Shown here in pieces: positions 513 through 18,735 of a stretch of DNA of 64,000 nt. Source of the stretch: an uncultured Actinomycetota bacterium (GTDB lineage Bacteria > Actinomycetota > Actinomycetes > JACCUZ01). The stretch is taken from positions 1,235,666 to 1,299,665 of the forward strand of contig CAWIXB010000001.1 in the NCBI GenBank assembly GCA_963839955.1, in the 5' to 3' direction. The notes beneath the pieces were generated by a model that had not been told where the DNA came from, ran no database searches, and saw nothing but the letters and a program-made list of their open reading frames with translations. Position numbers and translations under genes: made by a program. Positions within the stretch are counted from its first letter, which is position 1. The number at the start of each line of letters is the position of its first letter.

Positions 513-2345
513 ATGATGCGGCGACGTCCCACCCTCCTTCGCACCGCTCTCGGCGCCCTGGCGGCGCTGGCGTTGATCGCTCCGGTGGCGACGCCGGCCG
601 ACGCCAAGCCGAAACCACCAAAGCCGCCCGCCGGGGCCAAGACCCCCACCGCGGTGGGCAGCGGCGGTGCCGTCTCGTCGGTCGACGCGGACGCCACCCG
701 GGTGGGCCTCGACGTGCTGCGCAAGGGCGGCAACGCGGTCGACGCGGCGGTGGCCACGGCTGCCACGCTGGGCGTGACCGAGCCCTACTCCGCGGGCATC
801 GGTGGCGGCGGCTACTTCGTCTTCTACCAGGCCGACAGCGGCCAGGTGCGCACCATCGACGGTCGCGAGACCGCGCCGCAGCGGATGGGCCCGACCGCGT
901 TCGTGGACCCGGCGACCGGCCAGCCGATGCCCTTCAGCGACGCGGTCACCAGCGGCCTCTCCGTCGGCGTGCCCGGCACGCCGGCGACCTGGGACGAGGC
1001 CCTCGACCGGTGGGGCACGCTGTCCCTGCGTGCCGCGCTGCGCGGCGCCACCGACGTCGCGCACAAGGGATTCGTCGTCGACAAGACGTTCTTCGACCAG
1101 ACCGACGCCAACAAGGCGCGCTTCGCCGACTTCACCTCGACGAGCAAGCTCTTCCTGCCCGGCGGAGCGCCCCCGGCGGTGGGGTCCACCTTCAAGAACC
1201 GCGACCTGGCCGGCACCTACAAGCGGCTCGGCAAGGACGGCGTCGACTGGCTCTACCAAGGCCGCCTGGGTGACGAGGTCGTCGACACGGTCAAGAGCCC
1301 GCCACAGACACCGGGTTCGACGCGCAACGTGCGTCCCGGGCTGATGGAGACGGGCGACCTGGCGGCCTACGAGGAGCTGCGCCGGCCGCCCACCCGGGTC
1401 GGCTATCGCGGGCTCGACGTCTACGGCATGGCCCCGTCGTCGAGCGGCGGGTCGACGGTGGGGGAGGCGCTCAACATCCTGGAGAACGCCGACCTCGGGT
1501 CGATGTCGCGCACCCAGGCCATGCACCACTACCTCGAGGCGAGTGCGTTGGCGTTCGCCGACCGTGGCAGGTACGTCGGCGACCCGGCGTACGTCGACGT
1601 GCCGCTCCAGCAGCTGCTCTCGGACGGCTTCGCGGGCGAGCGGTTCTGCCAGATCGACCCTGCCCACGCGTTGGTCAAGCCGGTCCCGCCGGGTTCCCCC
1701 GACGGCAGCTACAGCGGCTGCGGCGCCGGCCCGGCCGCCGCCACCGGGAGTGACCGGGAAGGGCTGTCGACCACCCACCTGACGACCGCCGACAAATGGG
1801 GCAACGTCGTCTCCTACACGCTGACCATCGAGCAGACCGGAGGCAGCGGCATCGTGGTGCCCGGTCGTGGCTTCCTGCTCAACAACGAGCTGACCGACTT
1901 CAACTTCGTGCCCACCATCGCTAACGACCCCAACCTGCCCGCACCCGGGAAGCGGCCCCGCTCGTCGATGTCGCCGACGATCGTGCTCGACGGCGGCGAG
2001 CCGGTGCTCGCCGTGGGATCTCCGGGCGGTTCGACCATCATCACCACGGTCTTGCAGATCCTCGTCGACCGTCTCGACCGCGGCATGACCCTGCCCGAGG
2101 CCGTCGCCGACCCTCGCGCGAGCCAGCGCAACACTGCTGCCGTGCAAGCGGAGCCGGCCTTCGAGCGCGCCGGCTTGGCCGCGCTGGGGCACTCGTTCGT
2201 CGATCCGCCCGCGCCGGGTGAGATCGGCGCGGCCGCGGCCATCGAGCTGCTCGACGACGGCAGGTTCCTCGCCGCGGCGGAGCCGACCCGCCGTGGCGGC
2301 GGGAGCGCAGGCGTGGTGCGACCGGCACGTACGATCAACGAGTGA
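513..2345 (+). CDS. ggt: gamma-glutamyltransferase (secreted; Sec signal peptide MMRRRPTLLRTALGALAALALIAPVATPADA)
   Basis: The 610-aa ORF carries GGT hallmarks: GGGGYFVFYQ, and a T-rich autoprocessing region TTHLTTADKWGNVVSYTLTIEQTGGSGIVVPGRGFLLNNELTDF. Its stop overlaps the dapF start (GTGA). Confidence 0.9.
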   Translation: MMRRRPTLLRTALGALAALALIAPVATPADAKPKPPKPPAGAKTPTAVGSGGAVSSVDADATRVGLDVLRKGGNAVDAAVATAATLGVTEPYSAGIGGGGYFVFYQADSGQVRTIDGRETAPQRMGPTAFVDPATGQPMPFSDAVTSGLSVGVPGTPATWDEALDRWGTLSLRAALRGATDVAHKGFVVDKTFFDQTDANKARFADFTSTSKLFLPGGAPPAVGSTFKNRDLAGTYKRLGKDGVDWLYQGRLGDEVVDTVKSPPQTPGSTRNVRPGLMETGDLAAYEELRRPPTRVGYRGLDVYGMAPSSSGGSTVGEALNILENADLGSMSRTQAMHHYLEASALAFADRGRYVGDPAYVDVPLQQLLSDGFAGERFCQIDPAHALVKPVPPGSPDGSYSGCGAGPAAATGSDREGLSTTHLTTADKWGNVVSYTLTIEQTGGSGIVVPGRGFLLNNELTDFNFVPTIANDPNLPAPGKRPRSSMSPTIVLDGGEPVLAVGSPGGSTIITTVLQILVDRLDRGMTLPEAVADPRASQRNTAAVQAEPAFERAGLAALGHSFVDPPAPGEIGAAAAIELLDDGRFLAAAEPTRRGGGSAGVVRPARTINE

Positions 2346-3187
2346 GCGGTATCCGCTTCATCAAGGGTCACGGCACGGAGAACGACTTCGTCGTGCTGCC
2401 CGACCCCGAGCGCTCGCTCGACCTCACGCCCGCGCTGATCAGTGCGCTGTGCGACCGCAGGGCGGGCGTCGGCGGCGACGGCGTGCTCCGGGTCGTGCTC
2501 GCGAGCGCTGACCCCGAGGGCGCGCCGATGTCCCCCGAGTCCCGCTGGTTCATGGACTACCGCAACGCCGACGGGTCGGTCGCGGAGATGTGCGGCAACG
2601 GGATACGTGTCGTGGCGCGCTACCTCGTCGATGCGGGCCTCGAGCCGCCGGGGACGCTGCGCCTCGCGACGCGGGGCGGGGTCAAGACCGTTCGCCTCGA
2701 CGAGACCGGTGACGTGACCGTCGACATGGGCCCGCCGGGCTTCCCGAGCCCGGCCGAGGTGAAGGTGCGCGTCGACGACCGCGGGTGGTCGGGCGCCGTC
2801 GTCGACATGGGCAACCCGCATGTCGTCGCCTTTGTGGACGATCTTGCCGACGTCGGCCGGCTTCTCGACGCTCCGCAGCTCGACCCGCAGCTTCCTCACG
2901 GTGCCAATGTCGAGTTCGTCGTGGGCCGCGGGGAGCGCCACATCGCGATGCGGGTGCACGAGCGCGGTGTCGGCGAGACCCGGTCCTGCGGCACGGGAGC
3001 CTGCGCCGCGATGGTGGCGGCCGCGCGCCGCGACCAGGTCGCGGCGCCCTCGTCGTACGTCGTCGACGTCCCCGGCGGTCGGCTCACTGTCGCGCAGCGC
3101 GACGACGGCCACGTCGAGCTGACCGGGCCGGCTGTCCTCGTCGCCGAAGGCGAGCTCACCCTCGACTGGATCACCGCGCACCGCTGA
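2342..3187 (+). CDS. dapF: diaminopimelate epimerase
   Basis: The 281-aa ORF begins MSGIRFIKGHGTENDFVVLPD. It has the two catalytic Cys regions (…MCGNGIRVVARYL… and …SCGTGACAAMVAA…) typical of DapF. Confidence 0.9.
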   Translation: MSGIRFIKGHGTENDFVVLPDPERSLDLTPALISALCDRRAGVGGDGVLRVVLASADPEGAPMSPESRWFMDYRNADGSVAEMCGNGIRVVARYLVDAGLEPPGTLRLATRGGVKTVRLDETGDVTVDMGPPGFPSPAEVKVRVDDRGWSGAVVDMGNPHVVAFVDDLADVGRLLDAPQLDPQLPHGANVEFVVGRGERHIAMRVHERGVGETRSCGTGACAAMVAAARRDQVAAPSSYVVDVPGGRLTVAQRDDGHVELTGPAVLVAEGELTLDWITAHR

Positions 3188-3260
3188 GGGCTGTATCAGC
3201 GACGCGGTTCATGTATGAGCCACGCGGGTCATGTATGAGCTACGCGGGTCATGTATCAGC
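3185..3260. repeat. four tandem 20-bp direct repeats (consensus ACGCGGGTCATGTATGAGC) downstream of dapF and about 50 bp upstream of the 3310 gene
   Basis: Read directly: tgagggctgtatcagc | gacgcggttcatgtatgagc | cacgcgggtcatgtatgagc | tacgcgggtcatgtatcagc. The 20-bp period equals two helical turns, which is typical of response-regulator or iteron-like binding arrays. Confidence 0.7.
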
Positions 3261-3309
3261 GTCCGTGCGACGTGCTCTTCCTGGCACCACGAGTCCTAGG
3301 GAGACAGCC

Positions 3310-3849
3310 ATGCGCGTCCGACCTGTCCTGCTCGCCACCCTCATCGCCTTGGCCCCCATGGCGGTCCCCGTCCCGGCATCGGCCGCCTGCAGCACACCGT
3401 GGGGCTCGACCGCCGAGCGCGCGCCGGACCGGTCGGAGGCCAGCGTGACCGGCGTACGCGCCGGCAAACACACCTGCTTCGACCGTTTCGTGGTCGACCT
3501 CAACTGGCACCGGGACGGCTACCTCGTCCGCTACGTGCCCTCGGTCCACCAGGAGGGCTCGGGAGCGCTCGTGCCGCTGCGCGGTGGCGCCAAGCTCGAG
3601 GTCATCGTGCGCTCACCGGCGTACGACCACTTCGGCAACCCGACGTACGTGCCCAGGAACCCGCGGGAGGTCGTGCCGATCAGGTACAGGGGATACCGCA
3701 CGCTGCGCCAGGCCGCCTACGCCGGCTCGTTCGAGGGCCAGACGACCTTCGGTGTCGGCGTCCGCGCCCGGCTGCCGTTCCGCGTGTTCACCCTCGCAGG
3801 TGCACATGGCACGTCGATGGTCGTCGTCGACGTGGCGCACACCTGGTAG
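3310..3849 (+). CDS. secreted hypothetical protein (signal peptide; possible GerMN/AMIN-like fold)
   Basis: ATG at 3310 is preceded by a GGGAG ribosome-binding site (RBS). The N-terminus is MRVRPVLLATLIALAPMAVPVPASAA, followed by cleavage. No catalytic motif was recognised. Confidence 0.55.
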   Translation: MRVRPVLLATLIALAPMAVPVPASAACSTPWGSTAERAPDRSEASVTGVRAGKHTCFDRFVVDLNWHRDGYLVRYVPSVHQEGSGALVPLRGGAKLEVIVRSPAYDHFGNPTYVPRNPREVVPIRYRGYRTLRQAAYAGSFEGQTTFGVGVRARLPFRVFTLAGAHGTSMVVVDVAHTW

Positions 3850-3850
3850 C

Positions 3851-4546
3851 TCAGAGCCCGTTGGCCGAGAAGTGCATGTAGTCCTTGAGTGAGGACCACC
3901 CACCGCCCCATTTCCAGCTGATGTCGGTGAAGGCGCGGCGTACGCCCGTGGTCACCATCCCCTTGCGAAGAGGGGAGCGGTCGACGTACGCCGCGCCCGA
4001 GGCCGGTTCGACGACCCGGCCGCTGACATAGGGGTTCTGTACGGGGTTGATGTCGAGGGCGCGGCCGTAGGAGTGCTGGGACCAGGCTCGCCCGCTCGTC
4101 GTCTTACGGCAGTTGAACGCCGACGTGTTGTTGGCCCGCATCGACGCGCCGTCGCTGCCGCGGTAGTCGTCGACGAGGCGCATCCCCTGGATCGGGAACT
4201 CCTGCCGGTAGAGCGTGCGGAACACCGAGACGATGTTGGTGCCCTGTCCGTAGCGGACCACGAGCTCACCGGTGCGGAACCGGCCGGCGAACCCGACATA
4301 GCTGACGGTCACGTAGCGAAGCTGCGAGAGCGGCACGGGGCAGCCGGCGCGCCACGAGAAGCGCATCCGCTCGGCGAGCGCTGCGTCGATGGGACGGATC
4401 GACCAGCGAAATGCCGGGGCAGTCACCGCCGCGAGGTCGGCGGAGCGGGTCGGTGCCGCCGCCGGGGTCGCCGCGAGCATGACCGGCGCGCAGACCAGGG
4501 CAGCAACAGCGACCGCCAGACCGGGCAGAGCAGCGGAGAGGCGCAT
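3851..4546 (-). CDS. LAS/M15-family zinc metallopeptidase (D-Ala-D-Ala carboxypeptidase-like), secreted
   Basis: An internal ATG at 4546 gives MRLSAALPGLAVAVAALVCAPVMLAA (signal peptide). The SxHxxGxAxD motif (SQHSYGRALDINP) and a downstream D-x-M-H-F motif are diagnostic of M15/LAS peptidases. Confidence 0.7.
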   Translation of the reverse strand: MRLSAALPGLAVAVAALVCAPVMLAATPAAAPTRSADLAAVTAPAFRWSIRPIDAALAERMRFSWRAGCPVPLSQLRYVTVSYVGFAGRFRTGELVVRYGQGTNIVSVFRTLYRQEFPIQGMRLVDDYRGSDGASMRANNTSAFNCRKTTSGRAWSQHSYGRALDINPVQNPYVSGRVVEPASGAAYVDRSPLRKGMVTTGVRRAFTDISWKWGGGWSSLKDYMHFSANGL

Positions 4547-4643
4547 ACCTTCAGGACTCCCGTCTCGTGTCTGCAGTTGTCCTCGGCACAGATCGAGGTC
4601 GACACAAGACGGTTTCAGTGGGTTGTTCTTCGCAGGTGGGCCG

Positions 4644-7169
4644 TCAGGCGAGGGCAAGCGGTGCGGACCGAACCGCCGCGAGCGGGCGCGACTGCCAGGC
4701 CGCCAGCCAGCCGAGCAGGTCCTCAGCAGGCATCGGCCGGGACATCCAGAAGCCCTGCGCGGTGTCGCAGCCGAGCGTCTGGAGCAACCGCCAGGACGCC
4801 TCGTCCTCGACACCCTCGGCGACGACCTCCCGGCCGAGGCGGTGGCCCAGGTCGATGATCGCTCCAATGATCGCCACCGACTCGTCATGCGCGTCGAGGT
4901 CGGCGCGGCGAAGGAACGACCGGTCGACCTTGATCTCGTGCACCGGCAGGCGCTGCAAGTAGGCGAGCGAGGAGTAGCCCGTGCCCAGGTCGTCGATGGA
5001 CAGCCGGACGCCGAGTGCGCGGAGCCGCCCGAGCGCCTCGATCGCGCGCTCCGGGTCCGCCATCAGGCTCGACTCGGTGATCTCCAGGGTGAGCGCCGAG
5101 GCGGGTACCTCGACGGCGGCCAGCGCCCGAGCGACCTGGTCGACGAAGTCGGGATCGAGCAGGCTACGGGGGGAGATGTTCACCGCAATGCCGAGGGACT
5201 GGCCGGCCTTGCGCCACGCCTCGCACGCGAGCAGCGACTGCCTCAGCACGGACATGGTCAGCGGCGTGATGAGCCCGCTGTGCTCGGCCACCGGGATGAA
5301 CTCGTCGGGAGGGATGAGTCCGCGCTCGGGGTGCAGCCATCGCGCCAGCGCCTCGACTCCGACGACCGCGCCGTCGCGCAGCGACACCTTCGGCTGAACG
5401 TGCACGACAAGCGAACCGTCGGTGATGGCCTGCTTGAGATCGGTGAGGACGGTCAGCCGCTCGCGGCTGCTCGCGTCGAGTTCGGGTCGGTAGGCCTCGA
5501 CCGCCGTGTGGCGGCTCTTGGCGGCTGACATCGCGATGTCAGCTCGCCGCAGCACGTCGATGACATCCGATCCGCGGTCAGCGAAGGCAGTGCCGAAGGC
5601 GGCGCTCACCGTCACGTGGAGCTCGTCGAGCTCGAATGGACCCGACAACGACTGGCGCAGCAGCGTGACGACCGAGTCCGCCACCGCCGGCGCTGCCTGC
5701 GGGAGCAGAACGGCGAACTCGTCGCCGCCGACGCGGGCGAGCACGCCTCGCTGCGGCACCGTACTGGCCATCCGTTTCGCGACCTTCTGCAGCAGAGAGT
5801 CGCCAGCCGGATGCCCGAGCGTTTCGTTGATCTCCTTGAACCGGTCGAGGTTCAGCAGCACGACGCCGACGTCTTCACCGGCCGCCAGCCGGCGGGCCAG
5901 CAGCTCCTCGAGGTGGCGCCGGTTCGGCAGGCCCGTCAGCGAGTCGTGCATCGACTGCCTGAGCTGTTCGGCGACCTGCTCGGTGATGAGGTCGGCGCGG
6001 CGGGCGTTGCGCAGGGCGACGCTGAGATGGTTGCCGAGAGCGGTCAGCTCGCGCAGGTTGGCGGGGCCGAAGGTCTCAACGTCCCCGAGTCGGTCGCCGA
6101 CGACGAGCGTGCCGACGACCCCGTCGTCGCCGCGTAGTGGCATGGCGACGGCGTCGCGCAGCCCCGCCACGCGCAAGGCTCGGCCGAGGATGGCGTCGCG
6201 ACTCCCGCGGCGGGCGAGGACCGGACCGGCCGCGGTCCATGCGGCCAGGGCGCCCGCCTTGCTCGACCCGCTGAGTTCGCGCACTGAGCCGTCGATCCCG
6301 CCCTCCCAGTGCCGAGCCCGGCCGGCGAACGCTGCGTTGAGGGTGAGCTCGACAGTCTCTGCTCCCAGCGCCTGAGCAATCCAGACCACAGCCGTCGATG
6401 CGGCGGACTCGACGTCCGTACGCCCGCCGATCTCGCCGGTGAAGCGGCTGAGCTGTTCCAGGCTCTCGGTGCGCTGCCGCAACGAATGGTGGGCGCGCTG
6501 CGCGGAGAACAGCACAGCCAGGACGACACCAACCGTCCAGATGGCCCGCCAGTCGACGCTGAGCACGTAGACGAGAACGAGGCCGAGGCTCGCGTTCACC
6601 ATCGGCAGCAGCGGACCGAGCACGAGCAGGTTGATGGCGAACCTGGGTCGGGTGCCAGTGGTCACCGCGATCGCGAGCGAGATCAGCACCGTGCCGAGCA
6701 GGTCGGTGCTGACGATGGCAACGCCGATCGCGACCCAGCCCCACGGGCTGAGCTGCCCGGCATCGCCGAGCACGAGCCGCCACACGAGGACGACGGCGGC
6801 CGCTTCCAGCGCATAGTGCGCGACGTTGAACGCGAGCTTGTGCAGGCTGCGCCGGTTCCGCCAGGCGAGCGGCAGAACGGCACCGAGCAGGCGGGCAAGC
6901 ACGTAGTGGCTGGGCGGTAGCAGGAAGAGCCCGACGACGAGGGGGATCTCGTTGAGCGTGACGGAGTAGGCGTTGCGCCCGATCGGGAGGTAGACGACGG
7001 CGAGCTCCGCGGCGGCGAAGCCCGCCACGACGAGCGCCAGCATGAGCAGCGGATGTCCGGGCACGCCCTTCGGCGAGGGCAGGTCAGGCACGGCCAGGCT
7101 GATCAGCGCCACGGCCGAGAGGGTGATCGCGCCGACGAGCAGAAACAGCTGAAGGTCGGCCCGTCCCAC
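4644..7169 (-). CDS. membrane sensor diguanylate cyclase/phosphodiesterase (multi-TM N-terminal domain, GAF, GGDEF, EAL)
   Basis: It contains GGDEF (RVGGDEFAVLL) and EAL (GVEALARW…, ELTESSLM, DDFGTGYSSL-like) domains and about 8 predicted TM helices at the N-terminus. The start was moved to GTG at about 7169 because the track ORF overlaps the stop of the upstream S8 gene. Confidence 0.75.
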   Translation of the reverse strand: MGRADLQLFLLVGAITLSAVALISLAVPDLPSPKGVPGHPLLMLALVVAGFAAAELAVVYLPIGRNAYSVTLNEIPLVVGLFLLPPSHYVLARLLGAVLPLAWRNRRSLHKLAFNVAHYALEAAAVVLVWRLVLGDAGQLSPWGWVAIGVAIVSTDLLGTVLISLAIAVTTGTRPRFAINLLVLGPLLPMVNASLGLVLVYVLSVDWRAIWTVGVVLAVLFSAQRAHHSLRQRTESLEQLSRFTGEIGGRTDVESAASTAVVWIAQALGAETVELTLNAAFAGRARHWEGGIDGSVRELSGSSKAGALAAWTAAGPVLARRGSRDAILGRALRVAGLRDAVAMPLRGDDGVVGTLVVGDRLGDVETFGPANLRELTALGNHLSVALRNARRADLITEQVAEQLRQSMHDSLTGLPNRRHLEELLARRLAAGEDVGVVLLNLDRFKEINETLGHPAGDSLLQKVAKRMASTVPQRGVLARVGGDEFAVLLPQAAPAVADSVVTLLRQSLSGPFELDELHVTVSAAFGTAFADRGSDVIDVLRRADIAMSAAKSRHTAVEAYRPELDASSRERLTVLTDLKQAITDGSLVVHVQPKVSLRDGAVVGVEALARWLHPERGLIPPDEFIPVAEHSGLITPLTMSVLRQSLLACEAWRKAGQSLGIAVNISPRSLLDPDFVDQVARALAAVEVPASALTLEITESSLMADPERAIEALGRLRALGVRLSIDDLGTGYSSLAYLQRLPVHEIKVDRSFLRRADLDAHDESVAIIGAIIDLGHRLGREVVAEGVEDEASWRLLQTLGCDTAQGFWMSRPMPAEDLLGWLAAWQSRPLAAVRSAPLALA

Positions 7170-7207
7170 GACGGGGACAGACCGACCTCGCTGTGCTGCC
7201 GGACCGG

Positions 7208-8818
7208 TCACGGAGGTCCGCCCCACCCAGCCGACGCCCAGGACTTGCCCGCCCACGACTTGCCGAGCCAGGTCGCCCCGGCCCCTGCGTAGCCGCCCCA
7301 CGACGAGCCAGCCCATGACTTACCCGCCCAGGACTTGCCCGCCCAGCCGTTGCCGGCCCACGACTTGCCGGCCCACGACTTGCCGGCCCACGACTTGCCG
7401 GCCCACGACTTGCCGGCCCATGAGTCGCCGCACCAGCACGTACCGGTCCAGTCGACGTCGCCACCGAGCCAGCGGCCACCTTGCCAGCCGGCGAACGAGG
7501 CGCTGGCCGGAGCCCAGCGGGCTGCGTTGAAGGTGCCTAGCACATGACGCTCACCGGTGAGCTCGACGCCGTCGTCGCCCACGTGCTGCGTGCCTCGGGC
7601 CTGCTCGAGCGAGCCGAGGCCGGTCGATCGGGGCCAGCTCTGAGTGGCGTTCGGGGTCGCGGCCAAGAAGGCGCGGTACACGTCGAGCTCGCCTGTTCCC
7701 CTGCCCGCCGCGTCAGCGGTCGGCATCGGCTCGGCCGAGGACTTGAGCAGGGCCTTGACCTGGTCAGGCCTGAGGTTCGGCCTGGCCTGGAGGAGCAGCG
7801 CCACCGCACCCGAGACGACTGCCGCGGCCTGCGACGACCCGCTGCCCTTGAAATAGCGATCACCGACGCGGGCTCCCGGGTAGGCCTCGTCGAGGTAGGA
7901 ATCCGGGTCGCGAAGGGAGAGGAGCGACGTGCCCGGCGCGACCAGGTCGACGCGGCGGGCCGCGTCACCGCGGCTGCTGAAAGCGGGCACGACGTCGTCG
8001 TGCGCACTCACGGTGCCGCTGGTTGACGACGCGCCCACGGCAAGCACGTAGGGGTCGTACGCCGGGTTGTTGAGGCGCGAGGCGCCGCTGTTGCCGCCAG
8101 AGACGACGACGACGATGCCCGCCCGCCACGCGTTCTCCACGGCATGCGCGAGCGGGTCGGTGCGGTAGTCCTGCACACCGTCGGTCCCGTAGGCGAGGTT
8201 GAGGACCCGGATGGGGCGTTGCGGGTCGTCGCGGCGGTGGGCGACCACCCAGTCGACTGCGGCGATGACCTGTGAGACGTCGACGGCGCCCTCAGCGGTG
8301 CCGACCTTGACACTGGTCAGCCGGGCGCCGGGAGCCATGCCCTGGAAGCGGTCGGAGTCGAGCAGGCGGACGGGGTCGTTCCCGGCGATGATGCCGGCCA
8401 TGTGCGTGCCGTGGCCGAACGTGTCCAGGTGGCGCACGGCCGGGGTCTGGCTCTCGAACGACAGGTCCGGACCGTTGACCACGTTGCCGGTCAGCCCCTT
8501 GACGGGGACGACACCGGTGTCGATGAGCGCCACGCCGACTCCGCTGCCGGTGACCCCACGGGAGTACATCCGGTCGGCGCCGATGACGGCGGCGACATGG
8601 TCGAGGCTGGTGCTCTTGTCGTCATACATCCACCCGGTGGGGCCGAGCAGGCTGCCGACCGTGCCGGCGACGAGCGAGGTGGTGGTCGTCACCACGCCCC
8701 CGACAACCCCCGTGACCACACCCGTCAGATCGCCGATGAGCCCGGCCCGGGCCGGTGTCGTCGCGGGCCCGAGCCCGAGCAGGACGACTGCCGTCGTGGC
8801 CACCGCCACCCGTCGCAT
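7208..8818 (-). CDS. S8 (subtilisin-like) serine peptidase, secreted, with a C-terminal Trp-rich pentapeptide (SWAGK) repeat tail
   Basis: The catalytic triad regions are present: VALIDTGV (Asp), HGTHMAGII (His) and GTSLLS/GSGSSQAAAVVSG (Ser). The signal peptide is MRRVAVATTAVVLLGL (start at ATG 8818; an alternative ATG lies at 8842). The C-terminus reads CGDSWAGKSWAGKSWAGKSWAGKSWAGNGWAGKSWAGKSWAG…. Confidence 0.8.
   Translation of the reverse strand: MRRVAVATTAVVLLGLGPATTPARAGLIGDLTGVVTGVVGGVVTTTTSLVAGTVGSLLGPTGWMYDDKSTSLDHVAAVIGADRMYSRGVTGSGVGVALIDTGVVPVKGLTGNVVNGPDLSFESQTPAVRHLDTFGHGTHMAGIIAGNDPVRLLDSDRFQGMAPGARLTSVKVGTAEGAVDVSQVIAAVDWVVAHRRDDPQRPIRVLNLAYGTDGVQDYRTDPLAHAVENAWRAGIVVVVSGGNSGASRLNNPAYDPYVLAVGASSTSGTVSAHDDVVPAFSSRGDAARRVDLVAPGTSLLSLRDPDSYLDEAYPGARVGDRYFKGSGSSQAAAVVSGAVALLLQARPNLRPDQVKALLKSSAEPMPTADAAGRGTGELDVYRAFLAATPNATQSWPRSTGLGSLEQARGTQHVGDDGVELTGERHVLGTFNAARWAPASASFAGWQGGRWLGGDVDWTGTCWCGDSWAGKSWAGKSWAGKSWAGKSWAGNGWAGKSWAGKSWAGSSWGGYAGAGATWLGKSWAGKSWASAGWGGPP
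7216..7440. repeat. 15-bp tandem repeat array (GACTTGCCGGCCCAC-like) encoding the SWAGK pentapeptide repeats
   Basis: Read directly: gacttgccggcccac is repeated at least 5 times between about 7362 and 7436, with degenerate copies flanking it. Confidence 0.7.
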
Positions 8819-8993
8819 CCCGCGTCCCCCGCGTGACTGCATCGCAGACCCCACCCTGTCGCGACGCGAGAAGAAGGTACTCCCCGCCGTCTTACGGAGA
8901 GTGTCGGGCCGATGACAACCGGTAGGTAATGGGCAGGGCAAGAATTAGGCCGTTGGGGGAGCCGATGCCACTCGGGCGGCGTAGTCCTTTTGG

Positions 8994-10394
8994 TCAGGCA
9001 CCCTTCAGCCGAGAGCCGCGGACGAGGGCTTCGCGCCCGAGCCCGCGCAACGAGGCATCGAGCACCTCGATCGTGTGGGCGAGAGCCATCTGGCCGCCGA
9101 GGCGGTCGAACGAGGAGCTGACCTGCATGAGGCAGCCCGGGTTTGCTGTCACGAGCAGCTCGGCGCCGGTCTCGAGGACGGCGCGGGCCTTCCGGTCACC
9201 CAGCTCACGCGCGGGCTCCGGGTTGAGCACGTTGTAGATCCCGGCCGAGCCGCAGCAGATCTCGGGGTCGGCGATCTCGCGCAGCTCGACCCCCGGGATG
9301 CCATACAGCAGTGCGCGCGGCTGGCTGCGCACTCCCTGTGCATGCGCGAGGTGGCACGCGTCGTGATAGGCCACCGTCACGTCCAGGGGATGGCGCGTCG
9401 CGACGGGACCGAGGTCAGTCAGGATCTCGCTGATGTCGCGCACCCGACCGGCGAAGGCAGCCGCGCGGTCGGCGTACGCCGGCTCGTCGGCGAGCAGCTC
9501 GGCGTACTCCTTCATCGCCGAGCCGCAGCCGGCCGCGTTGACCACGACGTGCTCCACGCCGGCCCGCTCGAAGGCGTCGATGGTGCGCCGCGCGAAGCGG
9601 CGGGCCTCGCTCTCGCGGCCGTTGTGCACGCTGAGCGCGCCGCAGCAGCCCTGGTTGCGGGGGATGACGACGTCGCAGCCCTCCATGGCGAGCACCCGCG
9701 CCGTTGCCGCGTTGACACCGGGGAAGAACGTGCCCTGCACGCAGCCGGTGAGCATGCCGACGACCGCGCGTCTCGCCCCTCTTGCAGCGACCCGCTCGGG
9801 CAGTGGTCGCGACGACCGCAGCCGCGGCGCCAGGGACTCCATCGCCGCCAATGGCGGTGCGAAGCGGGTCAGCAGCCGGCTGCGCCGCACCAGCCGCTGC
9901 AGGCCGATGCGTTGGTAGGCGCGCAGCGGTCCGCGCACCAGACGCAGCCGGCGAGGGTAGGGGAACAGCGCGAAGATGGCGCCGCGCAGCATCCGTTCGC
10001 GCGGTGTGCGCGCGTGCCGCCGCTCGACCTGCGCGCGGGTGCTCTCGATGAGCTTGTCGTACTGCACGCCGGACGGGCACGCCGTCACGCACGCCATGCA
10101 GCCGAGGCAGGCGTCGAAGTGACCGACCATCGAGTCGGTCATGGGGTCGCCGTCGAGGCCGGACTTCATCAGGTAGATACGACCGCGGGGCGAGTCCATC
10201 TCCTCGCCCCACAGCACATAGGTCGGGCAGGTCGGCAGGCAGAAGCCGCAGTGCACGCAGTCGCCGACCAGCGCGGCATCCGGCGGCCGGTGGTCGTCGA
10301 ACGCCGGTTCGCCCGACGAGGTGGCCACGGCTTGCGGCCCCTCGCTGCCCTGCGTGCCCTTGGTGGCCTCCACCGGGGCGCTGTCGCTCGACAT
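8994..10394 (-). CDS. glcF: glycolate oxidase iron-sulfur subunit (CCG-domain Fe-S oxidoreductase)
   Basis: Two CxxCxxCxxxCP ferredoxin motifs are present (CVHCGFCLPTCPTY and CLGCMACVTACPSG), with Cys-rich CCG repeats downstream. The start was set at ATG 10394 (MSSDSAPVEATK…), which has a GGAGGGA RBS. The track ORF extends further upstream without support. Confidence 0.8.
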   Translation of the reverse strand: MSSDSAPVEATKGTQGSEGPQAVATSSGEPAFDDHRPPDAALVGDCVHCGFCLPTCPTYVLWGEEMDSPRGRIYLMKSGLDGDPMTDSMVGHFDACLGCMACVTACPSGVQYDKLIESTRAQVERRHARTPRERMLRGAIFALFPYPRRLRLVRGPLRAYQRIGLQRLVRRSRLLTRFAPPLAAMESLAPRLRSSRPLPERVAARGARRAVVGMLTGCVQGTFFPGVNAATARVLAMEGCDVVIPRNQGCCGALSVHNGRESEARRFARRTIDAFERAGVEHVVVNAAGCGSAMKEYAELLADEPAYADRAAAFAGRVRDISEILTDLGPVATRHPLDVTVAYHDACHLAHAQGVRSQPRALLYGIPGVELREIADPEICCGSAGIYNVLNPEPARELGDRKARAVLETGAELLVTANPGCLMQVSSSFDRLGGQMALAHTIEVLDASLRGLGREALVRGSRLKGA

Positions 10395-10407
10395 CCGGAT
10401 CCCTCCG

Positions 10408-11550
10408 CTAGATCCCGCCGACGAACCGGCCCGGTGCGAGCCGGTGGTGCGGGTCCATCTCGTCCTTGACCCTGCGCATGAGTGCGAGGCCCGGCACCGG
10501 GCCCCACATGTCGACTGCCTCTCTGACAGGTGGGGGAGCGGCGAGCACGACGACGTTCCCGTCGTACGCCGAGGCGCCCGTCCGCAGGTCGGTGACCAGC
10601 GCCTGTACCGCCTCGGGGTCCGACGAGCCCGGGACGCCGGCGTGCACCACACCAGCCGCGCTGCCGCGCAACGAGATCTCGGTGCCGTGGCGCGCCGCTG
10701 AGGCCCGGGCGATCTCGAGGACCCGGGACAAGCCGGTGATGCGCGTGGTGACCTTGAGCGCCACGTCGTCGCTGCCCCAGGGGTGGGTGTTCCACCAGGG
10801 CGGCGCCGCCGGGTCGCCGTCGGCGGTGCCGAGCAGGTCAGCGGTCGCGCGCACTCGCTGTGCCACGCCCTCGGCGGTGCCTTCGAGCAGCACGCCGACG
10901 CGAGGGCGGCCGTCGGCGGGCCAGTCGACCTCGACGGCGCTGGGCACGACCTGCGAGCCGAGCACCGCCGCCGTCGCGCGGCCCAACGAGGTGGCGTCGT
11001 CGACGTCGACCCCGACCACGTGGCGCACCGAGGGCAGCGGGTGGAGCCGGAAGATCGCCTCGCAGACCAGCCCGAGGGTGCCGTAGGAGCCCGCCAGCAG
11101 CTTGGCGAAGTCGTAGCCGGCGACGTTCTTCACGACCTTGCCGCCCGCCTTCGCGATCACCCCGTCGGCGCGCACGAAGGTGATGCCGATCAGAAGGTCG
11201 CGCACTGTTCCGCGCAACAGCCGTCGCGGCCCGCTCGGGCTGACCGCGATGGTGCCGCCTACCGTGGCGCCGCGCTCGCCGTCGTCGAGGGCGAGCTCCT
11301 GTGCTGCGCCGGCGAGCACCTGCTGGAGCTCGGCCACCGGTGTCCCGGCGCGGACGACGACGACGAGGTCGCCCGCCGCATGGTCGACGACGCCGGTCAG
11401 TCCGGTCGTGTCGACCACGAGGTCGACGGCGGTCGGCGGCGCGCCCCAGTCGATGCGGGTGCCGTTTCCGCGTGCGACCACGCTCAGGTCGTGGTGCGTC
11501 GCGGCGTGGAGCAGGTCGGCCACCTCGGCGGTGGAGTGCGGCGCGGCCAC
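10408..11550 (-). CDS. glcE: glycolate oxidase FAD-binding subunit
   Basis: It is an FAD-binding PCMH-type N-terminal region (…VVARGNGTRIDWGAPP…) placed between glcD and glcF, in the same order as the E. coli glcDEF genes. Confidence 0.7.
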   Translation of the reverse strand: MAAPHSTAEVADLLHAATHHDLSVVARGNGTRIDWGAPPTAVDLVVDTTGLTGVVDHAAGDLVVVVRAGTPVAELQQVLAGAAQELALDDGERGATVGGTIAVSPSGPRRLLRGTVRDLLIGITFVRADGVIAKAGGKVVKNVAGYDFAKLLAGSYGTLGLVCEAIFRLHPLPSVRHVVGVDVDDATSLGRATAAVLGSQVVPSAVEVDWPADGRPRVGVLLEGTAEGVAQRVRATADLLGTADGDPAAPPWWNTHPWGSDDVALKVTTRITGLSRVLEIARASAARHGTEISLRGSAAGVVHAGVPGSSDPEAVQALVTDLRTGASAYDGNVVVLAAPPPVREAVDMWGPVPGLALMRRVKDEMDPHHRLAPGRFVGGI

Positions 11551-11666
11551 GAAGCGCGCCTCGACGCCACCGACAGCGTCCGCGCTCTCGGCCGGGCGGA
11601 CCCGGTCGTCGCAGGTCTTGGCCAGCTCGGCGCGGACCTCGTCGTCGCTGCGTGCGGAGGGCAGGG

Positions 11667-13154
11667 TCAGAACACCTCCGCCAAGCCGGTCTCCTGCAGC
11701 GGGTGGACGCCCTTCTTGCGACCGGGCACCTCGCCGCAGAGGCGGGGGGTCGGGAAGACCTTGCCGGGGTTGGACAGGTGCTGGGGGTCGAAGGCGCAGC
11801 GCAGCATCTGCATGGTGTCCAGGTCGTCGTCGGTGAACATCCGCGGCATGTACTTCGCCTTGTCCATGCCGACACCGTGCTCGCCGGTGATCGAGCCGGC
11901 GTACTCGATGCAGAGATCGAGGATGGCGCCCGAGATCTCCTCGGCCTTCTCGCTCTGGCCCGGCACCGTGTCGTCGAACAGGACGAGCGGGTGCAGGTTG
12001 CCGTCGCCGGCGTGAAAGACGTTCGCGACCCGTACCCCGCCCGGCTCGTCGTCGGACATCGCGGCGATGCGACGCAGTACGTCAGGCAGCGCGGTGCGCG
12101 GGATAACGCCGTCCTGGACGATGTAGTCGGGACTGATGCGGCCCACAGCGGCGAACGCCGACTTGCGGCCCTTCCAGAACAGCGCGCGCTGGGCGTCGTC
12201 CTTCGCGATGCGGATCTCGAAGGCGTGGTTGTCCTGGCAGAGCTTCTCGACCTGGCCGAACTGCGCCGCCACCTCCGGCTCGGGCCCGTCGAGCTCGATG
12301 ACCAGCACGGCACCGGCGCCCTCGGGGTAGCCGCACTGCACCGCCTCCTCCGCGGCCTCGATGGCCAGCGCGTCCATCATCTCGATCGCGGCGGGGATGA
12401 CACCGGCACCGATGATGGCCGACGTCGCTGCGCCCGCCTCGTCGGTCGAGGGGAATGCCGCGAGCATCGTGCGGACCGCCTCGGGCGCCCGCAGCAGCCG
12501 GACGGTGACCTCGGTTGCGATGCCGAGCGTGCCCTCGGAGCCGACGAACGCACCGAGCAGGTCGTAGCCGGGCGGGTCGGGTGCACGACCGCCGAGGCGT
12601 ACGACGTCGCCGTCGGGCGTCACCAGCTCGACACCGACGACGTGGTTGGTCGTGAAGCCGTACTTGAGGCAGTGAGCGCCGCCGGAGTTCTCGGCCACGT
12701 TGCCGCCGATCGAGCAGATCTGCTGGCTCGACGGGTCGGGCGCGTAGTAGTAGCCGTGCGGTGCGGCGGCCCGCGTGACGTCCAGGTTGATGACACCGGG
12801 CTGCACGACCGCTCGTTCGTCCGCAGCATCGACCTGGAGGATCTCGCGGATCTGCGAGGTCACGATCAACACACCTTCGGCGTGCGGCAGTGCCCCACCG
12901 GAGAGCCCGGTGCCGGAGCCACGGGCGACGTAGGGGACTCCGGCGTCGACGCAGGCCCGGACCACCGCGGCCACCTGTCCGGTGTCGCGGGGGAGCACGA
13001 CGACCGCGGGTGTGACCTTGTAGTGCGCGAGCCCGTCGCACTCGTAGGTGCGCAGCTGGGCGTGGTCGGTGAGGACGGCGTCCGTGCCGAGCTCGGCGTG
13101 CAGCCGCGCGACCAGACTCTGCAGCGTCGGGGACGCCATGATCGAGGTGGCCAT
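11667..13154 (-). CDS. glcD: FAD-linked glycolate oxidase subunit GlcD
   Basis: The 495-aa ORF has the FAD-binding-4 pattern (VVLPRDTGQVAAVVRACVDAGVPYVARGSGTGLSGGALP) and a C-terminal FAD-oxidase domain. Confidence 0.85.
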   Translation of the reverse strand: MATSIMASPTLQSLVARLHAELGTDAVLTDHAQLRTYECDGLAHYKVTPAVVVLPRDTGQVAAVVRACVDAGVPYVARGSGTGLSGGALPHAEGVLIVTSQIREILQVDAADERAVVQPGVINLDVTRAAAPHGYYYAPDPSSQQICSIGGNVAENSGGAHCLKYGFTTNHVVGVELVTPDGDVVRLGGRAPDPPGYDLLGAFVGSEGTLGIATEVTVRLLRAPEAVRTMLAAFPSTDEAGAATSAIIGAGVIPAAIEMMDALAIEAAEEAVQCGYPEGAGAVLVIELDGPEPEVAAQFGQVEKLCQDNHAFEIRIAKDDAQRALFWKGRKSAFAAVGRISPDYIVQDGVIPRTALPDVLRRIAAMSDDEPGGVRVANVFHAGDGNLHPLVLFDDTVPGQSEKAEEISGAILDLCIEYAGSITGEHGVGMDKAKYMPRMFTDDDLDTMQMLRCAFDPQHLSNPGKVFPTPRLCGEVPGRKKGVHPLQETGLAEVF

Positions 13155-13178
13155 GTCAGTCCCTGTTCCCCAAGCCGC

Positions 13179-14786
<1,608 letters not shown>

Positions 14787-14975
14787 GGGCGTGGTCCTCC
14801 CAGATGAAGCTGGTTGCGGCCGCAAACTCTGACGCGGACGCTAGACCGCCGCTGACATGACGGTCAACGCGACCCTGTCCACGCCGTCGTCCGTGGCTCC
14901 GTGCCGTGCCCCTTACCCCGTGGCGGCGTGAAAACGCGGCTGCCGCATCCAACCGGGCGTGACACTCTGGACGGG

Positions 14976-16445
14976 ATGACCGAGCCAGCTAGAGGCGTTG
15001 AGACAGCACAGATGACTTCCGTTCCCTACCGGGCAGAGGCGCAGCCGCACGACGGCGAGCAGCGCGATCTGGCCGACCGCCAGGCGCTGCGACGCGTCGC
15101 CGGGCTCTCGACCGAGCTCCAGGACGTCACCGAGGTCGAGTACCGCCAGCTGCGCCTGGAGCGCGTCGTGCTCATCGGCGTCTGGACCGGGGGCTCCATC
15201 GAGGCGGCCCAGAACTCGCTGGCCGAGCTCGCGGCGCTCGCCGAGACCGCTGGTGCCGTGGTGCTCGACGGGCTCATCCAGCGCCGCGACCGGCCGGACA
15301 CGGCGACGTACGTCGGCTCCGGGAAGGCGCGCGAGCTGCGCGACATCATCGTCGCCGAGGGCGCCGACACGCTCGTGTGCGACGGCGAGCTGACCCCCGG
15401 CCAGCTGCGCCAGCTCGAGGAGGTCGTCAAGGTCAAGGTCATCGACCGGACCGCGCTGATCCTCGACATCTTCGCCCAGCACGCCAAGAGCCGTGAGGGC
15501 AAGGCGCAGGTGGAGCTGGCCCAGATGGAGTACATGCTCCCGAGGCTGCGCGGTTGGGGTGAGTCGATGTCCCGCCAGGCCGGCGGTGCCGGAGGCTCCG
15601 GCTCCGGGGGCGTGGGCACCCGCGGCCCGGGCGAGACCAAGATCGAGACCGACCGGCGTCGGATCCGGACCCGGATGGCCAAGCTGCGCCGTGAGATCGG
15701 CGGCATGAGGACGGCGCGCGACACCAAGCGTCAGGAGCGCCGCCGTCACGAGGTGCCCTCGGTCGCGATCGCGGGCTACACCAACGCCGGCAAGTCCTCG
15801 CTGCTCAACCGGCTCACCGACGCGGGCGTGCTGGTCGAGAACGCGCTCTTCGCCACCCTCGATCCGACGGTGCGCCGCGCGCAGACCCCGGACGGCCGCG
15901 ACTACACGCTCTCCGACACCGTCGGGTTCGTCCGCCACCTGCCCCACCAGCTCGTCGAGGCCTTCCGCTCCACGCTCGAGGAGGTCGGCGGCGCCGACCT
16001 GCTGCTGCACGTCGTCGATGCGTCCGACCCCGACCCCGAGGCGCAGCTCGCCGCGGTGCGCGAGGTGCTGGCCGACGTCGACGCCCACGACGTCCGCGAG
16101 GTCGTCGTCGTGAACAAGGCCGACGTCGCCGCACCCGAGGTCGTCGATCGGCTGCTGCTGCGCGAGCCGCACGCCGTCGTCGTGTCGGCGCGCACCGGCC
16201 AGGGTCTGGAAGGGCTGCGGGCGCTCATCGCCGACGAGCTGCCCAAGCCGTCCGTGCCGGTCGACGTCCTGGTGCCCTACGACAGGGGCGACCTCGTGTC
16301 ACGTGTGCACGACGAGGGCGACGGCATCGAGGCCGAGCACGTCGCCGAGGGGACGCGGCTGCGGGCGAGGGTCACCCACGCCTTGGCCGGCGAGCTCGCC
16401 GCCTTCAACGGCAACGGCAACGGCAACGGCAAGCCCAAGCCCTGA
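14976..16445 (+). CDS. hflX: GTPase HflX
   Basis: The HflX N-domain and G-domain are present (GYTNAGKSSLLNRLT, DTVGF). The C-terminus ends in an NGNGNGNGKPKP tail. The start is uncertain: ATG 14976 or ATG 15012. The track start at 14901 is probably too far upstream. Confidence 0.85.
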   Translation: MTEPARGVETAQMTSVPYRAEAQPHDGEQRDLADRQALRRVAGLSTELQDVTEVEYRQLRLERVVLIGVWTGGSIEAAQNSLAELAALAETAGAVVLDGLIQRRDRPDTATYVGSGKARELRDIIVAEGADTLVCDGELTPGQLRQLEEVVKVKVIDRTALILDIFAQHAKSREGKAQVELAQMEYMLPRLRGWGESMSRQAGGAGGSGSGGVGTRGPGETKIETDRRRIRTRMAKLRREIGGMRTARDTKRQERRRHEVPSVAIAGYTNAGKSSLLNRLTDAGVLVENALFATLDPTVRRAQTPDGRDYTLSDTVGFVRHLPHQLVEAFRSTLEEVGGADLLLHVVDASDPDPEAQLAAVREVLADVDAHDVREVVVVNKADVAAPEVVDRLLLREPHAVVVSARTGQGLEGLRALIADELPKPSVPVDVLVPYDRGDLVSRVHDEGDGIEAEHVAEGTRLRARVTHALAGELAAFNGNGNGNGKPKP

Positions 16446-16505
16446 CCCCCACCCCCACCCCCACCCCCACCCCCACCCCCACCCCCACCCCCACCCCCAC
16501 CCCCC
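16446..16505. repeat. (CCCCCA)~10 hexanucleotide microsatellite immediately 3' of the hflX stop
   Basis: Read directly: cccccacccccaccccc… runs for about 60 nt. The complementary strand is (TGGGGG)n, which is capable of forming a G-quadruplex. Confidence 0.9.
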
Positions 16506-16518
16506 GGCTCCCAACCCC

Positions 16519-16941
16519 GTGGTGATCATGCAGTTGTGCAGCTGCGCCTCTCTCACCTGCGCAAACTCCAGTGGTGATCATGCAGTTGTGCAGCACGCCC
16601 TGGACTGACCGCCGCACGCGTCGCTGGCGGACCGGGTCCCGAAGATCGCAACCAGGCCCCACAAAGGTGTCGGCATCGGGCCCGAGGCACGCTCACCGTG
16701 AACGACCGAGCGAGGTAAAGGCTCGCGTTGTGGGGGCTGTTGCGATCACCCAAGGAGCGGGCGGAGACAGACGGGACAGAACCGGCGAGATGACGCGGCC
16801 GGGCGAGCAGCGACCGATCAGGCGCCCCCGGCCCGTCGAGTACGCCGGAGCGTTGCCGACCAAGGGCTGCACAACTGCATGATCACCGCACGGGTTTGCG
16901 CAGGTCAGAGCGTTGGTCCGGCACAACTGCATGATCACCGG
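16519..16941. mobile_element. MITE-like inverted-repeat element of about 420 bp: four copies of the 21-mer GGTGATCATGCAGTTGTGCAG (two direct on the left, two inverted on the right) plus a shared CCTGCGCAAAC sub-motif
   Basis: Copies lie at 16521-16541 and 16573-16593 (forward), and at 16867-16887 and 16921-16939 (reverse complement). CCTGCGCAAAC at 16556-16566 matches GTTTGCGCAGG at 16894-16904. The interior (16594-16866) has no credible gene. Confidence 0.6.
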
Positions 16942-17126
16942 TGAAGGGTGGGGTGGCGGGTGGGTGAGAAGGCGGCAAGTAACAGAGAGTAACTGTGCGA
17001 TTACGGTGCCGGATTTGTCTGTAGGCCCGTTCTCGGGCTTCGCCAATCCGTCGATCCTCCCGTGGCCGAACGAGTGTCGCCACCGCTGTGACGCCGTCAC
17101 AGCCACTCACCCCTCGGGAGGGGACC

Positions 17127-18665
17127 ATGTCTCGATCGAGACAGCCCGCACGGGCACGCGCAGTCGCGCTGCTCGGCGTGGGCACACTGCTCGTCGGCGG
17201 CGGCCTCGCCGGCCTCGCGCCCGGCGGCGCCACCGCATCAAGTCACCGGGAGGCCCCGGCCATCTCGGGGATGCCGGAGTACGACAACACCGACACCTAC
17301 GCGTTCGTCAGCCCGGACAAGCCCGACACGGTCACCCTCGTGGGGTCCTGGATCCCGTTCGAGGAGCCGGCGGGCGGGCCGAACTTCTACCCGTGGGCAA
17401 CCGACGCCCGCTACAACATCAACATCGACAACGATGGCGATGCCAAGCCGGACATCACCTACCGGTGGAAGTTCAAGAACAAGCGCACACCCGGCCCGGC
17501 GGACAGCTTCACCGGCAACGGCACGTTCCTGCACAACAACGGGCCGGTGACGTCGCTCAACGACGCGAACCTGCTCTTCCGGCAGACCTACGACCTGCGC
17601 AAGGTCAGCTACAACAACGCCGGGTACGTCACCAGCCGCCGCACCTTGCTCGACGACGCGCCCGTGGTGCCGTCGCGTGTGGGGAATGCGTCGATGCCGA
17701 ACTACGACGCGCTGTTCAACGCGGGGATCAAGAGCGTCACCGGCGGGATCAAGTCCTTCGCCGGCCAGTCAGACGACCCGTTCTTCCTCGACCTGCGCGT
17801 CTTCGACCTCCTCTACGGCGGCAACCTGTCCGAGGTCGGTAACGACACCCTCGCGGGGTTCAACGTGAACACCCTCGCCCTGCAGGTCCCGAAGGCCAAG
17901 CTGACCGCCGGCGACCCGGTGATCGGCGTGTGGAGCACGACGGACCGCCGCAACGCGCACGGCGCCTACAGCCAGGTGTCGCGACTGGGCAACCCGTTGG
18001 TCAACGAGGTGGTCGTGCCCTACCGGGTCAAGGACGCGTTCAACGCCTCCAAGCCGACCGATGACGGTGCGGCTGCCCCGCTGGTCACCAACCCGGAGCT
18101 CGCGAAGATCATCCAGGCGGTCTACGGCATCCCGGCCCCCAAGACACCGCGCAACGACCTCGTGTCGGTGTTCCTCACCGGTGTCGCCGGGCTGAACAAG
18201 CCGGCCAGTGTCACGCCGAGCGAGCAGCTCCGGCTGAACACGTCGATCAAGCCGTCGACGTCAAAGAAGCGGCTCGGCGTCATTGACGGCGACAACGCCG
18301 GGTTCCCCAACGGCCGTCGCCTTTCCGACGACGTGGTCGACATCGCCCTGCAGGTGGTCGAGGGCGAGCTTGTCGGCTCGAAGAACGACCTGGGTGACGC
18401 GGTGAACCAGAACGACAAGGAGTTCCGGAGGAGCTTCCCGTACGTCGCCACGCCGCACTCCGGGTCGACCGTGAATCCGCACAAGGTCAACAAGGGCTTC
18501 ACGGCCCTGACCGGCGGCAAGGCGCCGGACACCCCGGCAGGGGGCGGGCTCACCGACAGCCCGGTCGCCCCTGTCGCGCTGATCGGAGTCGGCGCGCTGT
18601 TGCTGGCCGCTGGTGCATTCGCCACGACCAGGTGGACGCGACGCCCGCACGTCGCGACTGCCTGA
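17127..18665 (+). CDS. DUF4331-family secreted protein with a C-terminal membrane anchor
   Basis: The signal peptide is followed by the signature ATASSHREAPAISG motif of DUF4331. The C-terminus contains a hydrophobic helix, PVAPVALIGVGALLLAAGAFATTRW. ATG 17127 has a GGGAGGGG RBS. The track start at GTG 17088 is an alternative. Confidence 0.75.
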   Translation: MSRSRQPARARAVALLGVGTLLVGGGLAGLAPGGATASSHREAPAISGMPEYDNTDTYAFVSPDKPDTVTLVGSWIPFEEPAGGPNFYPWATDARYNINIDNDGDAKPDITYRWKFKNKRTPGPADSFTGNGTFLHNNGPVTSLNDANLLFRQTYDLRKVSYNNAGYVTSRRTLLDDAPVVPSRVGNASMPNYDALFNAGIKSVTGGIKSFAGQSDDPFFLDLRVFDLLYGGNLSEVGNDTLAGFNVNTLALQVPKAKLTAGDPVIGVWSTTDRRNAHGAYSQVSRLGNPLVNEVVVPYRVKDAFNASKPTDDGAAAPLVTNPELAKIIQAVYGIPAPKTPRNDLVSVFLTGVAGLNKPASVTPSEQLRLNTSIKPSTSKKRLGVIDGDNAGFPNGRRLSDDVVDIALQVVEGELVGSKNDLGDAVNQNDKEFRRSFPYVATPHSGSTVNPHKVNKGFTALTGGKAPDTPAGGGLTDSPVAPVALIGVGALLLAAGAFATTRWTRRPHVATA

Positions 18666-18675
18666 CCAGATGAGT

Positions 18676-18712
18676 CGCCCGCCCGGCTGCGGCACTCCGC
18701 AGCCGGGCGGGA
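18676..18712 (+). terminator. strong GC hairpin (about 15-bp stem, 5-nt loop) between the DUF4331 gene and the TPR gene: an intra-operon attenuator or partial terminator
   Basis: Read directly: cgcccgcccggctgcgg-cactc-cgcagccgggcggga. There is no U-tract. The downstream gene starts 24 nt later with its own RBS (GAAGGAAA). Confidence 0.4.
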
Positions 18713-18735
18713 GACCGGGAAGCGAAGGAAACCGC

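Follow-up and report, generated by a model that had tools for sequence, protein, structure and literature searches.

Intergenic variable-number tandem repeats (VNTRs) of the MIRU/ETR type are used for typing Mycobacterium tuberculosis, and strain-to-strain polymorphism in copy number is the defining behaviour of a VNTR. Direct repeats also serve as binding sites for proteins, and regulators of the OmpR/PhoB type recognise half-sites repeated every 10-11 bp, in operators located at or beside the -35 region of a promoter. In Streptomyces, PhoP recognises an 11-nt direct repeat unit (DRu) with the consensus G(G/T)TCAYYYR(G/C)G; binding takes two or more contiguous DRus and is drastically reduced when a DRu is cut to 10 nt by the loss of 1 nt (PMC2275107). 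The MtrA site of actinobacteria consists of two direct repeats of 5-6 nt placed 5 nt apart, (G/T)T(G/A)ACC-N5-GT(G/T)AC (PMC5650626).

The repeat considered here lies in a 64-kb stretch of DNA from an uncultured actinobacterium (the window), between dapF and a gene encoding an AMIN-like domain protein. The features of the locus are the following.

2342-3187, plus strand: dapF, encoding diaminopimelate epimerase (PF01678, E = 4.6e-57), with its stop codon TGA at 3185-3187
3188-15047, no strand assigned: lineage-specific block of about 11.7 kb, delimited by Pfam domains, synteny and blastn against relatives
3192-3261, no strand assigned: tandem repeat of 3.5 x 20 bp, the first and last 10-mers of which are both TGTATCAGCG
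3192-3211, no strand assigned: unit 1, TGTATCAGCGACGCGGTTCA, with 2 mismatches to the pattern TGTATGAGCNACGCGGGTCA
3212-3231, no strand assigned: unit 2, TGTATGAGCCACGCGGGTCA, with 0 mismatches to the pattern TGTATGAGCNACGCGGGTCA
3232-3251, no strand assigned: unit 3, TGTATGAGCTACGCGGGTCA, with 0 mismatches to TGTATGAGCNACGCGGGTCA and one base different from unit 2
3252-3261, no strand assigned: terminal half unit, TGTATCAGCG, the same as positions 1-10 of unit 1
3262-3298, plus strand: unique sequence separating the array from the ribosome-binding site, with no recognisable -10 or -35 element
3299-3304, plus strand: Shine-Dalgarno-like GGGAGA, 5 nt ahead of the ATG, read directly
3310-3849, plus strand: gene for the AMIN-like domain protein of 179 aa (PF24837, E = 3.4e-41)

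Read directly, positions 3192-3261 form a head-to-tail repeat with a 20-bp unit present in 3.5 copies, and Tandem Repeats Finder (TRF) delimits 3192-3260 (period 20, 3.5 copies, 89% matches, 0% indels, score 103). Start-to-start spacings of the units are exactly 20 and 20 in the repeat search. Self-similarity of the segment 3188-3265 reaches 0.78 at a lag of 20 and 0.71 at a lag of 40, and at the remaining lags from 5 to 44 it stays between 0.13 and 0.38 (0.18 and 0.22 at lags 10 and 11). The edges of the array are sharp, since on direct reading about 2 of 10 positions match the unit beyond 3192-3261, including past 3261. Allowing up to three mismatches, the 20-mer occurs three times in the window, each time in the array, against 0.01 expected, and none of 100 shuffles reaches three.

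The repeats reported in the preliminary description are therefore real and spaced exactly 20 bp apart, and the string quoted for them is 19 nt long rather than 20. Its three near-identical copies comprise one exact match (3222-3240) and two that are one base off each (3202-3220 and 3242-3260). The degenerate fourth copy (3182-3200) has only the TGTATCAGC half in common with the others, so that 3.5 units is the more accurate count. As for placement, the array had been said to start at the dapF stop codon and to end about 50 bp ahead of the ATG at 3310. The latter distance measures 49 nt; the array does adjoin the stop codon, with its first unit beginning 4 nt past the TGA.

A reading frame runs through the array, with a GC content at third codon positions (GC3) of about 0.52 by our own count versus 0.91 in the neighbouring genes, so that the array is non-coding. 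An N-terminal extension of the AMIN-like protein, or an upstream ORF, starting from the ATG at 3211 was considered and rejected: the frame is open through the array, but its GC3 and the lengths of the homologs favour the start at 3310. This start is supported by homologs of 180-182 aa that cover 99-100% of the protein. The AMIN-like gene itself has a native GC3 (0.91), and the N-terminus of its product, MRVRPVLLATLIALAPMAVPVPASAAC, reads by eye as a signal- or lipoprotein-like peptide.

The array thus presents a constant period with no spacer between units, a non-coding location and a period that is not a multiple of three, all of which a VNTR may show. Its inner units are nearly identical and its outer 10-mers are identical to each other, which also supports a minisatellite. 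As detailed below, a regulator-binding array is not borne out, and the best reading is therefore an ordinary bacterial minisatellite: a lineage-private, intergenic array produced by VNTR-type tandem duplication, to which we assign a probability of roughly 0.6. Such an array may have originated from a 20-bp stretch flanked by a 10-bp direct repeat (TGTATCAGCG...TGTATCAGCG) and been amplified to 3.5 units, presumably through slippage during replication or through unequal exchange. The latest step would have been a doubling of the inner unit, as units 2 and 3 are alike but for one base. The array is probably devoid of a sequence-specific function of its own, and changes in its copy number would at most alter the length of the spacer.

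MIRU/ETR-type loci of M. tuberculosis share with the array the head-to-tail arrangement, a unit length in the tens of bp, the high identity between units, the partial terminal unit and the intergenic position between co-oriented genes of a high-GC actinobacterium, and they too require no protein partner. The unit of 20 bp is however shorter than that of classical MIRUs (about 40-100 bp), and the array is a single locus in everything searched, unlike the MIRUs, which form a dispersed family. The array would serve as a strain-typing marker if more genomes of the lineage appear. In itself it matters little, as it only adds to the short tandem repeats that lie between genes of high-GC actinobacteria.

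In order to assess how common such arrays are, 565 kb of prokaryotic DNA, a small and non-random sample, were scanned with TRF. Nine arrays with a period of at least 10, at least 3 copies and a score of at least 80 were recovered, three of them with a non-triplet period, so that the occurrence of one in a 64-kb window is unremarkable.

Searches for the motif elsewhere point to an array that is, as far as the data go, private to this genome. Within the window, neither the 12-mer core (up to 2 mismatches), nor the 16-bp palindrome (up to 3), nor any of the 8- to 12-mers of the unit retrieved a site outside the array; a dispersed motif of a regulon may yet occur in the genome beyond these 64 kb. 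The 18-mer CGCGGKTCATGTATSAGC has 27 matches in 185,579 species genomes (one genome per species), where about 70 are expected by chance according to our own estimate, which assumes uniform base composition, and 49 matches in JGI metagenomes. All of these are single matches in unrelated taxa or phyla, mostly coding by the look of their flanks, and in neither collection is a match accompanied by a second core within 45 bp. A literature search with the core strings returned unrelated primer sequences only, and one with "AMIN-like domain" returned nothing useful.

Comparison with relatives is constrained by their distance. The nearest DapF proteins are 73-76% identical and belong to Kineosporiaceae and "Actinomycetes" MAGs, the closest being at 76%, and neither the AMIN-like gene nor the array is present at dapF in the five nearest relatives. 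The AMIN-like homologs fetched are 56-64% identical (nearest, 64%) and occur in other contexts, where the preceding gene is RNase J, purA or one without similarity to dapF. No upstream repeats are present at the retrieved homologs, and the sole resemblance there is one 9-mer with one mismatch, in locus L081, inside a hairpin loop. Absence from orthologous loci had been named at the outset as evidence against a regulatory array. The array is indeed absent from them, which counts weakly, since the relatives lack the whole block in which it lies. With relatives no closer than 76% in DapF, non-conservation is uninformative for or against function.

The intergenic spacer between dapF and the AMIN-like gene measures 122 bp, and the array fills most of what is the only non-coding DNA upstream of the latter gene. 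A sigma-70-type scan, the reach of which does not extend to alternative-sigma promoters, found 0 promoter-like sites in 2800-4200. The hexamer TANNNT is absent from both strands of the 700 bp from 2900 to 3600, a stretch that runs from the 3' end of dapF across the spacer into the first part of the AMIN-like gene, suggesting that this gene is expressed by read-through from dapF or from a non-housekeeping sigma factor. Likewise, there are 0 terminator-like sites near the array, and no U-run follows the predicted hairpin at 3203-3246. As the 122-bp spacer contains neither a recognisable promoter nor a terminator, the array is probably co-transcribed with dapF as part of a dapF to AMIN-like intercistronic region.

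If the array is transcribed, it could act as RNA. The string UCAUGUAUGA is self-complementary when G.U pairs are counted, and adjacent units are predicted to pair on the plus strand. They might thereby form an 18-bp hairpin in the dapF to AMIN-like transcript, which would stabilise the 3' end of dapF or attenuate read-through, with a second hairpin masking the Shine-Dalgarno sequence of the AMIN-like gene. The predicted hairpin at 3203-3246 has a minimum free energy (MFE) of -21 kcal/mol (z = -3.7), equalled by 0 of 200 plain shuffles, and the effect is confined to the plus strand, the minus strand of the region being no better than shuffles (z = +0.85). Plain shuffles however destroy the repeat itself, and the proper null therefore applies one and the same permutation of the 20 columns to all units, so that the repeat is kept. 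Measured in this way the array (MFE -23.0) is ordinary, since column-permuted arrays reach -22.2 +/- 4.6 and 39% of them are as good; the hairpin was accordingly rejected as a feature specific to this sequence. The whole spacer has a z of -0.59, the missing U-tract makes the hairpin unlike a terminator, and no Rfam match was obtained, either at the gathering score in the window or at E <= 1 in 3000-3500. The hairpin that pairs the Shine-Dalgarno sequence (3276-3305, CUCUUCCUGG...CCUAGGGAGA) appears in both the MFE and the centroid structures, yet it is only weakly above shuffles (z = -1.2). An RNA-level role for the array is on this evidence distinctly improbable.

Binding of a regulator to the DNA was among the interpretations first put forward, on the grounds that a period of two helical turns is typical of cooperative binding by OmpR/PhoB or other winged-helix regulators. 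In such an arrangement three to four sites, with centres 20 bp apart on one face of the helix, would be occupied by a cooperative factor that controls the AMIN-like gene. This could be an atypical response regulator that contacts a single GKTCA half-site in each unit; alternatively, it could be a dimeric HTH protein on the near-palindrome GGnTCATGTATGAnCC. Several features are compatible with it. The array lies directly upstream of the AMIN-like gene, ending 49 nt ahead of its ATG, in a spacer with 61% GC versus 71% in the genome. Each unit contains a GKTCA-like half-site and a core, TCATGTATGA, that is a short near-palindrome (6 of 8 pairs in its extended form, GGnTCATGTATGAnCC), so that a DNA-binding protein could use the array upstream of this gene for a secreted protein. 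Finally, GTTCATGTATG and GGTCATGTATG fit the PhoP DRu consensus at 9 of 11 positions (PMC2275107), and TCATNNATGA occurs twice in the array versus 0.13 times expected in the window.

The array and the PHO boxes bound by PhoP in Streptomyces are both direct repeats upstream of a gene, and G(G/T)TCAT in the unit equals the first six positions of the DRu consensus (PMC2275107). PHO boxes consist however of contiguous 11-nt DRus, whereas the good DRu-like matches of the array (3207, 3227 and 3247) are 20 nt apart, not 22, with a poor intervening slot and no promoter context; in the adjacent 11-nt slot, at 3218, no more than 4 of the first 6 positions agree with the consensus. Self-similarity at lags 10 and 11 is at background, and the half-site of each unit is without a partner. 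In the case of MtrA, the reverse strand of each unit has ATGACC, which is near one MtrA half-site (PMC5650626), but a second half-site at the 11-bp position is lacking, and the best full site on either strand of 3180-3310 agrees with 8 of the 11 specified positions.

Other evidence also disfavours an operator. There is no visible -10/-35 element on which an activator or a repressor could act, and no further site in the 64-kb window, and the block genes that were scanned include no regulator. The surplus of TCATNNATGA comes from counting the repeat twice, and a 16-bp palindrome with 6 of 8 pairs has a chance of about 0.2-0.5 in a random 20-mer, by a rough binomial estimate. The positions that should act as spacers are as conserved as the rest of the unit, which fits recent duplication and not site-specific selection. 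The period of two helical turns is by itself no evidence for a response-regulator operator, given that any 20-bp tandem duplication yields it. With no 10-11 bp sub-period, partner half-site, promoter or second site in 64 kb, the assignment to an OmpR/PhoB or other winged-helix operator is not supported, and an operator array of any kind is rather unlikely.

An improbable reading is a functional, recently amplified operator, each 20-bp unit of which would bind one protein molecule or one dimer, all on one face of the double helix, and in which the gain or loss of units would act as a heritable rheostat. The locus would then be a promoter-proximal minisatellite exerting copy-number-dependent control over a secreted AMIN-like cell-wall protein in an uncultured actinobacterium. 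On this minority reading it would be a minor case in which the number of repeats controls a gene for a cell-wall protein.

The private minisatellite favoured here occupies a breakpoint in gene order. In agreement with the preliminary description, which had placed it at the boundary of an inserted block, homology to relatives breaks at the dapF stop codon (3187). When three related loci (L028, L031 and L084) were compared with the 64-kb window by blastn, miaA, ggt (encoding gamma-glutamyltranspeptidase) and dapF aligned in all of them, and the alignment ended exactly at 3187. In the window this conserved run comprises the end of miaA followed by ggt, and dapF is its last gene. In L028 and L031 the alignment picks up again inside hflX, at 15048-15050, and once more near 21700, within a gene for an S9 peptidase; the contig of L084 stops a short way past dapF, with no reach to hflX. 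The array, 4 nt past the dapF stop, sits at the left edge of the intervening block and precisely marks the synteny breakpoint between dapF, the 11.7-kb block and hflX. At its right end the block includes an intergenic region and the non-aligning 5' end of hflX (14901-16445).

The block contains genes for the AMIN-like protein (+), an M15_4 peptidase (-), a GAF-GGDEF-EAL protein (-), an S8 subtilase (-), glcF/E/D-like proteins (-) and malate synthase (-). In L028-L030, hflX follows dapF after 52 bp. In L031 and L084 a single HTH_67 gene stands in the place of the block after dapF (7115-7603 and 3226-3966 of the respective loci), which indicates that the dapF-hflX junction is a recurrent site of gene gain or loss in the group. 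The possibility that the GGDEF-EAL gene of the block is an inverted ortholog of the gene located after hflX in L028 was rejected, since the two are only 40% identical over their catalytic domains and are thus paralogs.

The coincidence of repeats of iteron-like length and phase with the left end of a block missing from relatives could suggest an iteron array, an origin, or the end or att site of a mobile element by which the 11.7 kb were introduced. Iterons of plasmids and phages are likewise direct repeats of 17-22 bp in helical phase. The array differs from them in its chromosomal housekeeping context and in the lack of a rep gene, of DnaA boxes and of an AT-rich unwinding element, so that the iteron-like character proposed for it initially could not be sustained. 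No rep, integrase or transposase domain was detected by Pfam among the scanned block proteins, which have cell-wall, c-di-GMP, glycolate oxidase and malate synthase functions. No DnaA box (up to 1 mismatch) occurs in 2900-3600, and the most AT-rich 30 bp of the spacer are only 53% AT. Sequence resembling the spacer is present neither at the right edge of the block nor elsewhere in the 64-kb window, and the spacer was rejected as the end of a mobile element for want of such a counterpart. The GC3 is also native. The iteron and mobile-element reading is therefore largely refuted, and we consider it extremely improbable. With native codon usage and no mobile-element genes among those scanned, the block looks like a chromosomal rearrangement and not a recent foreign or element insertion.

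A mis-assembled copy number is conceivable in what looks like a metagenome-assembled contig of 3.75 Mb, and the exact proteins are found on only two contigs (one NCBI and one ENA record), with no cluster mates. Particular positions however distinguish the units from one another, and clean coding sequence flanks the array; an error would at worst affect the number of copies and leave the repeat itself real. Nor, to our knowledge, do assemblers typically err by producing 20-bp tandem arrays. An assembly artefact is thus very improbable, and together with the iteron or mobile-element end it accounts for a few percent in total.

Further observations were made in and around the block. The longest ORF of the M15_4 (VanY-like) peptidase gene (3851-4888, minus strand) is convergent with the AMIN-like gene, ending 1 nt from its stop codon, and overlaps the 3' end of the GAF-GGDEF-EAL gene (4644-7316, minus strand) by 245 nt, so that its true start is probably internal. 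The GC3 of this peptidase gene (0.81) is below that of its neighbours. To the right of the block, the C-terminus of hflX ends in (CAACGG)x4.5, encoding a NGNGNGNG tail, and a perfect (ACCCCC)x10 microsatellite runs from its stop codon (16443-16445), within 16406-16504. Like the 20-bp array, this second tandem repeat is placed at a point where gene order departs from that of relatives, and it too speaks for the minisatellite reading. An exact 24-bp direct repeat, GTGGTGATCATGCAGTTGTGCAGC, occurs at 16520-16543 and 16572-16595, its intergenic copies 52 bp apart, upstream of a DUF4331 - TPR - NicO-like transporter cluster (17025-21659). This could be a paired regulator site for the cluster, which is metal-related. 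The strongest tandem repeat in the window (TRF score 186) is found inside the block, in the S8 subtilase gene (7208-8941, minus strand), where a period of 15 bp at 7236-7420 encodes about 12 tandem SWAGK pentapeptides at the C-terminus of the protein.
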